A DNA stretch of 60,693 bases, the filler included, from Globobulimina sp. (lineage: Eukaryota): NCBI GenBank assembly GCA_003354225.1. It is 18 parts of 18 records of this genome, joined end to end, with 100 filler letters (N's around TTAATTAATTAA, not from the genome) between each part and the next. Parts side by side here need not be neighbours in the genome. Positions count along the whole stretch, not along the records: positions 23,651 to 26,928 come from PIVH01003223.1; 17 more parts are not named here. One strand, given 5' to 3'. Shown here piece after piece: positions 22,722 to 60,648 of this stretch (within the stretch, counting starts at the first letter, position 1; each line of letters starts with the position of its first letter). A program made the position numbers and the translations under genes. The notes beneath the pieces are model-generated. The model made no database searches. It worked only from the letters and a program-made list of their open reading frames with translations, and was not told where the DNA came from.

Positions 22722-23550
22722 TTAATCGTCGGATTCTTCAGCTTCTTCATCGGTGGCTTGCTCCGACAACACATCCAAATAATCTTTCTCTAAGAAACCC
22801 AAATCTTCTCTGGCTTCTGCGAATTCGCCCTCTTCCATTCCTTCACCGACATACCAATGAACAAAGGCGCGCTGCGAATACATCAAATCGTATTTCTTAC
22901 TGATTCGCTCACTGAACACGCGCGAAATGGCCGTATTATTACCAATCATCACAATATTTCTCTTTGCCGGCGCGACATCGTCATCAGGCAACACAGCTGG
23001 CGGTTCATCATTTAATCCGACTTTGAAACCGGTCGGACACCATTCCACAAAGGTTACCTTCTTATTCGTCTTCAACCATTGGACCGTCGCATTCGCCTCT
23101 TTCGCCTTCACATCGCCGCGATAATTCACTGAAATCGCCATATATTTATCTTCCTCGGCGTCAAAATCTGCAATTCTGAGTTAAAAAAATTTTAAAGTGC
23201 GATTTTGCGTACATATATTTAAAAAAAAACTAAACTTTGTGAAGAAATTTTGCGCTGCAAAACAAGTTTCGGTAATACCCTGAATATCACATCTCGCGGT
23301 TTCCATTTTTTTTGGTGTCACAACGGGCGCCATGGCAGTAATCATAAAATGTAATCGAGGGAAAGGCACTAAATTGGTCTGAAACTCATTCAAATCCACA
23401 TTTAATTCACCTTCAAATCGTAACGAAGCAGTCATGGAGGATATGCATTTGGTAATTAACCGATTCAAATTGTCATAAGATGGTCTTTTGCGATCCAACC
23501 ATTTCTGACAAATCTCATAAATGGCCTAGTTATCCAATAAGATGGATATT
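22722..23550 (-). CDS. TUBA: Divergent alpha-tubulin (Retaria alpha2-type), 5'-partial; intron 23176-23235; in-frame TAG at 23526-23528
   Basis: SLRFEGELNVDLNEFQTNLVPFPRLHF, FVEWCPTGFKVG and RAFVHWYVGEGMEEGEFAEAREDL motifs, with many substitutions at normally invariant sites. Confidence 0.95.
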
Positions 23551-23650: not shown

Positions 23651-24949
23651 TGTACGCGGTTTCTTTCCGAAACTTCCTGCGATGTAAGACTCTATTGTCC
23701 GTATAATGCAGTATGGGGAAGCATTGTTTATTCCGTAGCCAATGGTAGATATCAATGCTATGATTCTGTTTGCTGTCCATGGGATAATTATGATTTTATC
23801 TCCAAAATACCAACAACAGAGCCAACTTCATCGCCAATAATAACTACCAATGGCCCTTCTCAACCACCAACAAACAGTATTAATCCAAGTTTGTCACCAA
23901 CAGAAAACCCAACTTTATCACCAACAGAAGAAGCAAACGAAGAGTCAAACAAAGTGGATGCATTTGCCTTTCTATCTGGTACTTTATTAACCATTTTGGT
24001 TGTGGGCGCCGTAACACTTTTAATATGTATTTTTATTATTTTTATGTGGTTATATGCAAAAAATATGAGAGCTGCAAAAGAGAAGGAAATTATAATAAAA
24101 AATGCGTTGGTTATATTCCTGGCCATTGGTGAATATAATTATCCCGCTGCTGATGATGCGGATGAAGAGTTAAAAAATGCATATTTACCAAATTTAGAAA
24201 TTGATGTGGATCTCAGTAATTTGTCTCAGCTGTTTGGTGCCGAGTTTCTTAATTATACAATATATCCAAACTATGATGAAACTACAAAAACGCAATGGAC
24301 GCAGGATGAGATAATAACTTTATTGACGGACAAAGCGAATTTATTAGAGGCAAATGTAAATAAATTTGATGGTTTATTGGTTGCCATCTCTTCGCATGGT
24401 GTTAAAGATCATATTTGTTGTTCAGATTATAAACTGATTGAAAAACTCGCTGTGCACAGAATATTCTCTCAGAATCATCCGCTGTCCCGAGAGATACCGA
24501 GAATTTTCCTGTTTGATTGTTGTGATGGAGACAAAGAACGAGGTAAAAATATTAAAATTAGGAATACAAATACAGTGAAAGAGGCATTAGAGGATCGAGG
24601 AAAAAATTATACAGTGGAACAAATCGAAAAATTAGAGAGTGTGATTTGGAAACATGATACAAAAAACCCCGACCATCGGCTGGTGGAAATAAATGCTGCC
24701 AATCCAGGATTTCAATCGAAATTAAGTACTGTTAAAGGCAGTTATTTATTGCATGGATTTGTTAAAAAAATGATTGATGATTTGAAGTATAATCGAAATC
24801 AATATATTCATGAGATTTTTGATGATTTACAAAGTGAATTACAAGAACAAGGAAAGCAATTAACGAAAAATACATATAATAATGGCACCAGATATATTAA
24901 ATTACGAAGAAATAATAATAATACTCCAGCAATGCAAATTATGCAATAG
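23651..24949 (+). CDS. Single-pass membrane protein with a Cys-rich ectodomain, P/T stalk and cytoplasmic caspase-like (peptidase C14) domain, 5'-partial
   Basis: The frame is open from the contig start. TM at about 23963-24058, followed by NALVI, DGLLVAISSHG (His), PRIFLFDCCDG (Cys), NPGFQS..GSYLL and GKQL. Confidence 0.82.
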   Translation, partial: CTRFLSETSCDVRLYCPYNAVWGSIVYSVANGRYQCYDSVCCPWDNYDFISKIPTTEPTSSPIITTNGPSQPPTNSINPSLSPTENPTLSPTEEANEESNKVDAFAFLSGTLLTILVVGAVTLLICIFIIFMWLYAKNMRAAKEKEIIIKNALVIFLAIGEYNYPAADDADEELKNAYLPNLEIDVDLSNLSQLFGAEFLNYTIYPNYDETTKTQWTQDEIITLLTDKANLLEANVNKFDGLLVAISSHGVKDHICCSDYKLIEKLAVHRIFSQNHPLSREIPRIFLFDCCDGDKERGKNIKIRNTNTVKEALEDRGKNYTVEQIEKLESVIWKHDTKNPDHRLVEINAANPGFQSKLSTVKGSYLLHGFVKKMIDDLKYNRNQYIHEIFDDLQSELQEQGKQLTKNTYNNGTRYIKLRRNNNNTPAMQIMQ

Positions 24950-25633: not shown

Positions 25634-26900
25634 TTAATGTATAACAAATCCCATCTTTGTTGCGCTCTGTTTTTTATTCACAGTGTTTGAATCACCAAAT
25701 GACGTAAAATAATCAATTTTCATTGCTTTTAGATCCTCCTCGATTTCCTCTTTGGTAAAGTGAATAAATAACACAGTTATCGAGAATAGACAGATGGAAA
25801 AAGCACAAATAATCCAGGCATTAGTATATGAAATAAGGTGCGGAACGTAGGTAAATAATACTAATGCATACAACATCGAACCTAAAGGACCGCCCGCTCC
25901 GACAATACCCAGACAAAGGCCCATATGTTTTTTATGCGGTAAGCTCGGCACAATGGCAAATACAATACCTTCAGCAATCTGTACGTAAATGCCAAAAAAC
26001 GACATCATTAATAATGAAAATCCAAAATGAAATGAACTATATTCAACAACAAAAACACATAATTGTGCATTTTGAATCGCGTTTGAAACACAAACCTGAA
26101 TGCAAACACCAACAAAAACGCAGATTCAAACACTAAGACAAAGAACAGACAATATATTCTTCCCTGAATACCATATTTTAAATATAAAATATCTGATAAA
26201 TATCCACCAAAACCACGAGCAAATAAACTTAAAAAACTAAAACAAAATGTGATCATACCGCCCGTTTCTATGCTCGTATTGAACTGATTCGCAAAGTAAT
26301 CAACAAAATAATTTAAAACTGTCAGTTCAATGCCGAAGCACAGCGCATATGCTAATGCTAATAGCCAGACGCGATAATCTGACAAAACTCGTTTCCATTT
26401 GTATTTGTTGAATGTACACCAGATCTTTAATGTAATTCGTTCTTTGGATATATTTCCCTTCGGCGTCTCGATGGTATATCTGTAATATATCACCATCACA
26501 ATAAGTAACATTGACGCTCGTACCAACAATGTGAATCTCCAGGCTATATCAGACGATATATGCAATTCATTGATAAACATATTACAAATTGCGGGCGTGA
26601 TAAGCATCGTAACTCCTCCACCTGTTTTTTGTTTAAATGCAATACTTATCAGACGTTGGTTTTTGTTGTCGACATACATACCAAAATTCGCCCAGCCCGG
26701 ACTTAATGCAGTTGCCAGTCCAAGGCACTTAATAGAAAAAAACGAGATAATGTGGTATTGACCGATGACGAAGGAAGCACCCATAATGCCTGCAAAAAAT
26801 GAAAATATTATATATGAGGTGCTGTTGTATGATATGAAGGCTTGGAAAAGTAAGGCAACGCAGGAAATAAATAATAATATTACAGAGGAGTAACGTGCAC
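25634..26900 (-). CDS. NRT2: NRT2/NarK-family nitrate/nitrite transporter (MFS), 5'-partial; introns 26037-26095, 26622-26681
   Basis: GARY, ASFVIGQY, GWANFGGG, YALCFGIELT, FARGFGGYLSD, QIAEGIVFAIVP and GIVGAGG motifs. Confidence 0.88.
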
Positions 26901-27028
26901 CTATTTATATTTTAGCAGGTTAACAAATNNNNNNNNNNNNNNNNNNNNNNNNNNNNNNNNNNNNNNNNNNNNTTAATTAATTAANNNNNNNNNNNNNNNN
27001 NNNNNNNNNNNNNNNNNNNNNNNNNNNN

Positions 27029-58947: not shown

Positions 58948-60648
58948 TTATGAAAAACAGACAACAATGACAACCACTACAATATACATATTATTATTTT
59001 TTTGCTTTGTGTCACTTTCATTTGGACTGGGATAATTGGGATTTGAACTGGGATAATTGGTAGGATTTGAACTGGGATAATTGGTAGGATTTGAACTGGG
59101 ATAATTGGTAGGATTTGAACTCTGATAATTGGTTGGAATGTTGGTACTGTAATAATTGGTCGGATTTGAAGTTGGATAATTGGTAGGATTATGTGAATGA
59201 TTTGTAGGAGCTGAACTTGGTGCCGCTGTAAAACCAGACCCAATGTCAACCACTAATAAATTATTGCCCATTTCATTTGCTTCATCTCCTCTGTTATTCG
59301 TATCACCATATCCTAATTCACCATGATTATTCTCTCCCCAACACTTCACTGCATTACTGGTCGACAATGCGCAGGTATGACCATGTCCTGCTACAATCTG
59401 TATTGCGTTAAAACCAATTCCCAAATCAATCACTCTTAAACTGTCTCCCATTTCATTTGCTGCATCTCCTCTGTTATTCGTATAACCATATCCTAATTCA
59501 CCATAACCATTATACCCCCAACACTTCACTGCATTATTGGCTGACACTGCACAGTTATGATGATATCCTGCTACAATCTGTATTACATTAAAACCACTCC
59601 CCAAATCAATCACTCTTAAACTATCTCCCATTTCATTTGCTGCATTTCCTCTGTGCTTAGTATCACCATATCCTAATTGACCAAAGTCATTCCTTCCCCA
59701 ACACTTAACTGCATGGCTGGTCGACAATGCGCATGTGTGGGAAAATCCTGCTACAATCTGTGTTGCGTTAAAACCAATTCCCAAGTCAATCACTAATAAA
59801 TTATCTCCCATTTCATTTGCTCCATCTCCTCTGTTATTAGTATCACCATATCCTAATTCACCATAATTATTAAACCCCCAACACTTCACTGCATTATTGG
59901 CTGACACTGCACATGTTTGAAATTGTCCTGCTGCAATCTGTGTTGTGTTAAAACCAGTCCCCAAATCAATCACTAATAAATTATTGCCCATTTCGTTTGC
60001 TCCATCTCCTCTGTTATTCGTATCACCATATCCTAATTGACCATACATATTCCATCCCCAACACTTCACTGCGTAACTGGTCGACAATGCACATGTGTGA
60101 TGAGAGCCTGCTACAATCTGTATTGCGTTAAAACCAGTTCCCAAATCAATGTTTAATAAATTAGTGCCCATTTCCTTTGCTCCATCTCCTCTGTGCTTAG
60201 TATCACCATATCCTAATTGACCATATTCATTATACCCCCAACACTTCACTGCATTGCTGGTCGATAATGCGCATGTATGGAAATATCCTGCTACAATCTG
60301 TGTTGGTGTAAAAGCAGAGCCAATGTCAACCTCTAATAAATAAATACCCATTTCATTGCCTCCATCTCCTCTGTTATACCAATCACCATATCCTAATTGA
60401 CCCCGAGTATTCACTCCCCAACATTTCAATGCATGGCTGTTTGATAATGCACAGCTATGAGAACCGCCAGATGTAATATTTCCAGTTATACATTTTTTAA
60501 AACATAATCCAATGATAAACAGTAAAATGGTTTTAAATCCTTTGTCAACGACACAATCCGACAAACTGTCTCTTGCTCCAATCATAATATCAGAAAACAA
60601 CGATAAAATAAACGCAACTGATTCTTTTAATTCAGTTGTTTGTGTCAA
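58948..60648 (-). CDS. Cell-surface RCC1/BLIP-II repeat protein with a P/S/T/N stalk and C-terminal hydrophobic segment
   Basis: Seven 60-aa repeats (AG..HTCAL...VKCWG.N.YGQLGYGD), then PSSNPTNY repeats and MYIVVVVIVVCFS. The start is uncertain. Confidence 0.9.
   Translation of the reverse strand: MTQTTELKESVAFILSLFSDIMIGARDSLSDCVVDKGFKTILLFIIGLCFKKCITGNITSGGSHSCALSNSHALKCWGVNTRGQLGYGDWYNRGDGGNEMGIYLLEVDIGSAFTPTQIVAGYFHTCALSTSNAVKCWGYNEYGQLGYGDTKHRGDGAKEMGTNLLNIDLGTGFNAIQIVAGSHHTCALSTSYAVKCWGWNMYGQLGYGDTNNRGDGANEMGNNLLVIDLGTGFNTTQIAAGQFQTCAVSANNAVKCWGFNNYGELGYGDTNNRGDGANEMGDNLLVIDLGIGFNATQIVAGFSHTCALSTSHAVKCWGRNDFGQLGYGDTKHRGNAANEMGDSLRVIDLGSGFNVIQIVAGYHHNCAVSANNAVKCWGYNGYGELGYGYTNNRGDAANEMGDSLRVIDLGIGFNAIQIVAGHGHTCALSTSNAVKCWGENNHGELGYGDTNNRGDEANEMGNNLLVVDIGSGFTAAPSSAPTNHSHNPTNYPTSNPTNYYSTNIPTNYQSSNPTNYPSSNPTNYPSSNPTNYPSSNPNYPSPNESDTKQKNNNMYIVVVVIVVCFS
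59027..59192. repeat. 24-bp coding tandem repeat (PSSNPTNY)
   Basis: ACTGGGATAATTGGTAGGATTTGA units on the + strand. Confidence 0.85.

Follow-up and report, generated by a model that had tools for sequence, protein, structure and literature searches.

The gene analysed here lies at positions 23651–24949 (+) of a 60,693-nt stretch of Globobulimina sp. DNA, hereafter the window. It is a real gene for a membrane protein, of which it encodes the C-terminal 432 residues: part of a cysteine-rich outer region, one helix and an intact protease of the caspase type. Our preferred reading, to which we assign a probability of about 0.6, is that the protein is a one-component receptor protease: a type-I single-pass protein with a varied ectodomain on a stalk and a cytosolic C14 protease that would be activated through clustering by a ligand. 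The architecture, the topology signals and the affinity to caspases are well supported, and this throughout the family of related proteins. The plasma-membrane site, ligand-induced clustering, activation by proximity, the P1 preference and the biological role we infer.

The window consists of 18 contigs of about 3.3 kb each, with spacers (N44-TTAATTAATTAA-N44) between them. Because of these spacers nothing before 23651 or past 26928 counts as genomic context for the gene, and throughout the window genes on either side of a spacer are not genomic neighbours. Position 23651 is the true start of the gene's own contig (23651–26928, about 3.3 kb). From there the plus-strand frame is free of stops up to a TAG codon at 24947–24949, a run of 432 codons. 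The base composition of the contig (A 0.37, T 0.29) predicts one stop in about 13 codons, and the probability of such a run is about 7e-16. The gene is AT-rich, matching the remainder of the window, and is 5′-truncated at the contig edge. A tblastn search with the protein revealed no second copy among the other 17 contigs, just weak Pro/Thr-rich matches. One of these, at 59026–59229 (−) in the last contig, aligned with the stalk of the query (E 0.004, 42% identity); it is probably a further Pro/Thr-rich coding stretch.

All parts of the protein are encoded in this single plus-strand frame. Residues 1–50 (23651–23800) are a fragment of the cysteine-rich ectodomain with six cysteines. They are followed by a mucin-like stalk (residues 51–100, 23801–23950) in which proline, threonine and serine make up 56% of the residues. 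In Pfam the stalk matched the MGC-24 sialomucin family weakly, short of the threshold; a tandem-repeat scan detected just two short low-score repeats, an 8-residue NP(S/T)LSPTE duplication falling under the threshold of the scan. The only strong hydrophobic segment of the protein covers residues ~102–139 (maximum Kyte-Doolittle value of 3.13 for a 19-residue span); from hydropathy and the predicted model a single transmembrane helix was placed at residues ~105–135 (23963–24055), and in the AlphaFold2 model the segment forms a helix at 105–144 with a pLDDT of ~90. A basic stop-transfer stretch, AKNMRAAKEKE (24056–24088), comes directly after the helix. The protease begins with a p20-like large-subunit half matching Peptidase_C14 (24089–24529) that contains His249 (24395–24397), Asp289 (24515–24517) and Cys291 (24521–24523). 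A charged, disordered inter-subunit linker (residues 294–332, 24530–24646) with a conserved Lys318 (24602–24604) separates it from a p10-like small-subunit half (24647–24910) with W333, NPD at 339–341, N351-x-GF, GSY at 363–365 and the last β strand. A short C-terminal tail with the TAG stop occupies 24911–24949.

An earlier reading of this DNA, the original prediction, had proposed a frame open from the contig start that joins a Pro/Thr stalk, one long membrane helix, a basic stretch and a p20/linker/p10-like domain, with the histidine of SSHG at 24395 and the cysteine of FDCCDG at 24521. This description was borne out: 23651 is the first base of the contig, one unbroken frame carries all of these parts, and both residues align with the catalytic residues of human caspase-2, His249 with the histidine of the SHG motif and Cys291, the second cysteine of FDCCDG, with the cysteine of QACRG.

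The nearest relatives of the protease domain were searched for by sequence, by profile and by predicted structure. The Peptidase_C14 family (PF00656) matched residues 184–405 with an E-value of 2.2e-10 and 41 bits, the cut-off being 21.4. With the single sequence, the best relatives of solved structure were human caspase-2 (E 3.9e-4), a Drosophila caspase and caspase-1. A Protein Data Bank (PDB) search with a profile of 15 family sequences returned caspase-2 (E 1.4e-5), followed by caspase-3 and CED-3. Fifty-eight of the 60 matches listed in this search were caspases, including a circularly permuted design of caspase-2; the other two were neurexin-1, which matched the stalk region. The AlphaFold2 model, computed from a 15-row alignment, had a mean pLDDT of 71.8, with values of ~90 in the helix and protease and below 50 in the ectodomain and at residues 293–317. 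The predicted domain has the caspase-hemoglobinase α/β fold in a caspase layout, with six core strands, five helices and a disordered linker immediately after the catalytic cysteine; His249-Gly250 and Cys291 end strands 241–251 and 284–291 (strands 3 and 4), respectively. In a Foldseek comparison of the model with the PDB all matches listed, down to rank 50, were animal caspases (caspase-8, -3, -1, -9, -11, -6, -7 and -4, CED-3 and a coral caspase), with E-values down to 1.5e-9, target TM-scores of 0.64–0.78 and alignments of 263–308 columns. No metacaspase or paracaspase was found among the 60 profile matches listed, the single-sequence matches or the Foldseek matches listed. Among language-model feature matches in the ESM Atlas, 29 of 30 were Peptidase_C14 clusters, the top three being automatically named caspase-3-like, caspase-7-like and caspase-14-like. 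A homodimer prediction for two copies of residues 145–425 scored 0.00 and weighs neither way. The four kinds of comparison (single sequence, profile, predicted structure and language model) thus agree in putting the domain nearest to animal caspases. The caspase-like fold on which the original prediction depended was recovered in the predicted model. Its claim that the motifs follow true caspases more than metacaspases stands in part: the nearest relatives are indeed caspases, but the p10-type motif likenesses it cited are not significant on their own.

Relatives of the protein were then collected. A word-index search retrieved 14 relatives with 36–47% identity, several of them with Kelch or C-type lectin domains before the protease; a second, longer word-index search with the family profile gave three matches, all known already. 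A profile was also run exhaustively against 1.84 billion cluster representatives (clusters at 50% identity); of 2180 matches at E≤1e-3, 876 reached E≤1e-10 and 435 reached E≤1e-30. The top 150 of these 2180 matches were 254–2694 residues long, and the protease was nearly always C-terminal. The architecture was analysed in the query and 157 fetched relatives, 135 of these sequences having 60 or more residues ahead of the point where the domain is projected to begin. Most of the remaining 23 begin at or near the domain; P0019 and P0101 are full-length but were misplaced by the script. The clusters of 29 relatives were looked up: 18 were named, and all 18 belong to Nonionella stella or Bolivina argentea (EukProt), which are Foraminifera. 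We take the EukProt sets of these two species to come from transcriptomes of polyA-selected mRNA; on that premise the full-length members, which comprise signal peptide, ectodomain, helix and protease, constitute evidence for the layout at the transcript level. Such libraries have been sequenced from both species, and the word "caspase" is absent from the paper that describes them (PMC8153729).

A hydrophobic 19-residue segment (Kyte-Doolittle value of at least 1.9) was present within 120 residues upstream of the domain in 135 of 135 sequences. The distance from the end of this helix to the domain has a median of 15 residues (range 7–62), the part ahead of the helix, i.e. the ectodomain, measures 20–2226 residues (median 396), and the median tail past the domain is 36.5 residues. 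Lysines and arginines average 4.96 in the 15 residues after the helix versus 1.21 in the 15 before it; they are more numerous on the C-terminal side in 129 of the 135, equal in five and fewer in one. A methionine followed by a signal-like hydrophobic start was found in 57 of 114 members whose domain begins beyond residue 200, by a crude test applied to a set with many fragments. Together, the helix, the positive-inside charge and the signal-like starts indicate a type-I orientation with the protease in the cytosol and the ectodomain outside or in a lumen, the topology that the original prediction needed.

These signals set the orientation of the protein and not its destination membrane, so an endomembrane protein has to be considered, with an ectodomain that would face the lumen of the endoplasmic reticulum, Golgi, food vacuole or lysosome and sense cargo or vacuole content. 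Foraminifera phagocytose their food, and lumen-facing lectins are plausible. However, long Pro/Thr stalks and ectodomains of up to 2226 residues are commoner on surface proteins, and we consider an endomembrane location quite improbable.

The ectodomains are highly varied. Pfam scans of 128 relatives (E≤1e-5) detected Peptidase_C14 in 114, Kelch-type propellers in 13, PT repeats in 10, C-type lectin domains in nine and SAM domains in three, with one occurrence each of RCC1-like, reelin subrepeat, Laminin_G_3 (laminin-G-like) and phytase-like domains; no other Pfam families were reported for the remaining ectodomains in these scans. A predicted membrane anchor ahead of the caspase domain was counted in 135 of 135 sequences, and the outer domains in the family include Kelch, C-type lectin and others. 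Neither death domain (DD), death-effector domain (DED) nor CARD was among the Pfam families reported for the 128 relatives or for the query. The SAM domains are located C-terminally to the protease, one or two per protein, in P0025, P0118 and P0017, and are hence cytosolic. As SAM domains are modules of self-association, their presence is in keeping with activation through clustering, which they could pre-organise or amplify. Taken as a whole, the sequences point to a very large foraminiferal family, in which a constant helix-plus-caspase module is combined with highly varied ectodomains, among them Kelch propellers, C-type lectins, Cys-rich modules and many that match no known family. The family-wide data make the receptor reading much stronger than it would be from a single gene.

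Adhesion molecules, too, typically carry lectin, Kelch, laminin-G-like and mucin-like modules. The protein may be an adhesion or structural surface protein with a tethered, constitutively regulated protease: the ectodomains would attach reticulopodia to substrate or prey, and the caspase would remodel the local cytoskeleton or membrane, or trim its own tail, rather than act as a ligand-gated switch. The very short membrane tether (median of 15 residues) fits local action, and a lysine and an arginine conserved in the linker (see below) could serve self-cleavage. On the other hand, hundreds of divergent ectodomains on a constant enzymatic module are a pattern of recognition receptors and not of adhesion proteins, and all caspase-fold enzymes studied so far are, to our knowledge, inactive until brought together. 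We regard adhesion as a serious alternative, if an unlikely one. By analogy, a family of this size, whose ectodomains turn over while the module behind them stays constant, resembles the repertoires of recognition receptors, which is how we read it.

Independent copies of the DNA were searched for in public sequencing runs. Seven runs from three studies contain part of the gene region, and contigs of four of them were aligned to it. A contig of 843 nt matches 23651–23933 with its first 283 letters and continues for ~560 nt upstream. Another, of 1292 nt and from a different organism and study, is ~94% identical, spans 23651–24550, from the ectodomain to the catalytic cysteine, and extends 371 nt farther upstream. 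The only insertions or deletions of the latter over 23651–24550 are in frame: 24 additional nucleotides behind 23896, which correspond to eight codons or one further stalk unit of the NPTLSPTE type, and three nucleotides fewer at 24016, i.e. one codon less in the helix. The number of stalk repeats therefore differs between close relatives. At least 31 codons are changed: of the 31 listed, all within the first 199 codons, 23 are nonsynonymous and eight synonymous, with none at a cysteine, and there are 45 further differences beyond those listed.

Since the assembly is very fragmented, the gene lies at a contig edge and the relatives come from environmental specimens, we also considered an artefact, namely chimerism in the assembly, a wrongly joined contig or contamination with an (animal) caspase. 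A single stop-free frame, an identical layout in all 135 independent sequences, coverage by runs of three studies and an AT-rich composition matching the rest of the window argue against it, and the literature searches made found no animal caspase described with such a layout. An artefact is hardly credible.

Conservation of the catalytic residues was determined by aligning the 158 family sequences (query plus 157 relatives) to the domain hidden Markov model (HMM). Position 249 is His in 157 of the 158, position 250 is Gly in all 158, and the catalytic Cys at position 291 is retained in 154. The active-site pentapeptide is DCCDG and not QACxG, with a family consensus of D-[CSA]-C-x-G. Its Asp289, found in 156 of the 158, stands two residues ahead of Cys291, at the position of the caspase Gln in the HMM alignment. 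The distance from the catalytic Cys to the conserved Trp333 varies in the family from 0 to 112 residues, with a median of 49.

Caspases owe their S1 specificity to Arg87, Gln184 and Arg233 (caspase-7 numbering), the counterparts in MALT1 being Asp365, Asp462 and Glu500, and the metacaspase TbMCA2 uses Asp95 and Asp211, according to the review by McLuskey and Mottram (PMC4357240). In the foraminiferal family, position 181, located four residues ahead of a conserved D-x-D, corresponds to the first S1 arginine by hand alignment and is Asn in the query (of the 158 sequences 97 have Asp here and 42 have Asn). Position 358, which corresponds by hand alignment to the second S1 arginine, is Leu in the query and either Met (68) or Leu (50) in most relatives; the preceding position 357 is Lys in 127 of the 158. 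The basic Arg-Gln-Arg pocket of caspases is thus absent, Asn/Asp, Asp and Leu/Met occurring in its place, and the arrangement typical of paracaspases and metacaspases is found, an acidic S1 in which an Asp precedes the catalytic Cys by two residues, Asp289 occurring in 156 of the 158. The replacement of both S1 arginines, put forward in the original prediction, agrees with the non-Arg residues at the two hand-aligned positions. As judged from the alignments, the domain is caspase-like in predicted fold and overall sequence, but two of its three S1 positions resemble those of metacaspases and paracaspases. With Asp/Asn and Asp in S1, cleavage after Asp is predicted to be unlikely; cleavage after Arg or Lys would be plausible. 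If P1 is basic, the linker residues Lys318 (present in 116 of the 158) and Arg297 (86 of the 158) are, speculatively, candidate sites of self-cleavage.

The loss of both S1 arginines and the presence of a zymogen caspase-8:c-FLIP complex among the Foldseek matches bring to mind a non-catalytic scaffold, where the caspase fold would serve for dimerisation or docking only; c-FLIP is an example of a known pseudo-caspase. Yet near-invariant His249, Cys291, Gly250 and Asp289 (157, 154, 158 and 156 of the 158, respectively) are unexpected for a dead enzyme, and we find a scaffold very improbable.

We propose the following mechanism for the receptor protease. A disulfide-rich and probably glycosylated ectodomain on a mucin-like stalk would face the outside or a lumen, one helix would span the membrane, and a C14 (clan CD) protease, predicted to be catalytically competent, would lie in the cytosol some 10–15 residues off the bilayer. 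A multivalent ligand, which may be the surface of prey, of a microbe or of a self or foreign cell, would cluster the ectodomains and so join the tethered caspase domains, activating them by induced proximity. Once active, the domain would cleave targets in the cytosol and perhaps also the linker in its own chain. The output may be signalling, remodelling of the cytoskeleton or a local self-destruction of the reticulopodia, and the data favour none of these. Initiator caspases and MALT1 switch on when brought together, which makes clustering driven by a ligand a natural switch. MALT1 dimerises without cleavage of a linker, as stated in the same review (PMC4357240), and may be a plausible model for the foraminiferal domain. 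The original prediction had called the protein a one-component, ligand-induced proteolytic receptor in a protist. One chain, a cytosolic protease, a caspase-like fold and a family-wide layout uphold the first part of this statement; that the receptor is ligand-induced we likewise infer.

Several points weigh against our reading and its details. The contig edge cuts the ectodomain of this copy, so that its own signal peptide and ligand-binding part lie outside the contig. None of the seven runs that contain part of the gene region is recorded as RNA; two of the runs are at best presumed to be RNA. The named relatives come from field-collected specimens, and contamination may formally have occurred. 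The inspection of relatives covers the best 150 of the 2180 profile matches, and the helix, signal-peptide and topology calls are plain hydropathy and charge counts made without a dedicated predictor. The p10 half alone finds no caspase in the PDB, whether searched as a single sequence or as an 11-sequence profile (best E-values 0.11–0.12, to unrelated proteins), and the p10 assignment consequently rests on the full-domain Pfam match and the predicted fold. Finally, positions 181 and 358 were mapped to the S1 arginines by hand alignment to a caspase-3 sequence rather than by structural superposition, and the conserved Lys357 adjoins the presumed third S1 position and could alter the charge of the pocket.

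With animal caspases (MEROPS C14A: caspase-2, -3, -8, -9 and CED-3) the family shares the His-Gly and Cys dyad, the six core strands, the linker straight after the catalytic Cys and the p10-type motifs. It differs from them in DCCDG instead of QACxG, in Asn(Asp)/Asp/Leu(Met) instead of Arg/Gln/Arg and in the fusion, in a protist, to a membrane helix and ectodomain, with no CARD, DED or death domain reported in the 128 relatives. With MALT1 and metacaspases (C14B) it has in common the Asp two residues before the catalytic Cys (MALT1 Asp462, TbMCA2 Asp211) and an acidic or polar first S1 position (Asp365 and Asp95). However, the third S1 position is hydrophobic here and not Glu, the nearest relatives are not C14B proteins, the extra strands of metacaspases are not seen in the foraminiferal AlphaFold2 model, and the Ig and death domains of MALT1 are absent from the Pfam families reported for the foraminiferal proteins. 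The death receptor–FADD–caspase-8 assembly, or death-inducing signalling complex, follows the logic proposed here, with a ligand clustering a single-pass receptor and thereby bringing caspases into proximity. In animals it is built from three proteins through death and death-effector domains, whereas here a single chain comprises receptor and protease, with adaptor domains absent from the Pfam families reported. The layout of signal peptide, variable ectodomain, one helix and cytosolic enzyme is also that of receptor kinases (animal receptor tyrosine kinases and plant receptor-like kinases). Dimerisation by a ligand, as proposed here, and large lineage-specific expansions are common to both, but the output here would be a protease, making each signalling event irreversible.

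Constant caspase domains combined with variable domains are known from bacteria. Kaur, Burroughs, Iyer and Aravind (2020) describe EACC1-caspase conflict systems that combine a constant caspase-superfamily domain with as many as 50 different variable domains at the C-terminus, read as effectors freed by autoproteolysis and not as sensors; transmembrane helices occur in at least 33% of these caspase proteins (PMC7159879). Neither Reticulomyxa nor foraminifera is named in that paper. The constant caspase, the variable domains and the membrane helices are shared with the family described here. The EACC1 system, though, is prokaryotic and consists of two genes, one for the EACC1 partner, and its caspase is N-terminal and its variable part C-terminal, an order that is reversed here. 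An EACC1-type neighbour is lacking on the gene's contig, where the sole neighbour gene encodes a convergent transporter of the MFS type.

Caspase-like proteins of foraminifera have been noted before. As reported by Klim et al. (2018), "caspase-like" proteins of Reticulomyxa filosa branch with animal caspases at 92–95% bootstrap and group with these rather than with metacaspases (PMC5982838), a point repeated in PMC10565124, and one such protein was later used as an outgroup (PMC10959488, PMC11251625). The main text of Klim et al. (PMC5982838; supplements outside the scope) contains none of the words "receptor", "lectin" and "Kelch" and uses "transmembrane" solely for the mitochondrial potential. 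The Reticulomyxa proteins, with the accession ETO10778.1, probably belong to the same family as the proteins described here.

Full-text literature searches, with paper supplements outside their scope, found no description of a receptor-caspase layout in eukaryotes. The original prediction knew of no described system of this architecture. For the eukaryotic receptor layout this agrees with the outcome of these searches, but caspase-like proteins of foraminifera (2018) and bacterial membrane caspases (2020) had been published.

In the usual view caspases are soluble enzymes of animals, and adaptor proteins are their only link to surface receptors. Here a receptor and a caspase-type protease would be one polypeptide, in a protist and in hundreds of versions with different outer domains. 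If our reading is true, the family would represent a new class of transmembrane signalling, in which recognition outside the cell leads directly to proteolysis in the cytosol. It would also be a candidate for innate recognition in a major group of marine protists, about which next to nothing is known as regards immunity, the recognition of prey and the discrimination of self from non-self. It also bears on the origin of caspases, because its members are the closest non-animal relatives of true caspases. A single chain without adaptors offers a simple system for studying proximity-induced activation and the evolution of P1 specificity, and coupling of receptor to caspase without an adaptor is directly testable, in a large family of an under-studied phylum. 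More broadly, foraminifera may hold hundreds of such one-component "receptor caspases", a protease counterpart of receptor kinases, with which they would discriminate prey, microbes, symbionts and foreign cells at the reticulopodial surface by irreversible proteolysis or local self-destruction. It would follow that proteases of the C14A type predate animals and were coupled to surface receptors without death-fold adaptors. We put this wider proposal forward tentatively, the odds being somewhat against it.

The neighbouring transporter gene mentioned above covers 25634–26904 (−). Its frame at 26008–26904 matched MFS_1 with an E-value of 6.5e-10, and a second, overlapping frame at 25634–26125 (−) looks like the continuation of the same gene past an intron or a change of frame. 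In the preceding contig two open frames at 22722–23525 (−), named from their translation by eye, resemble the C-terminal part of α-tubulin; the division of the coding sequence between frames suggests an intron.

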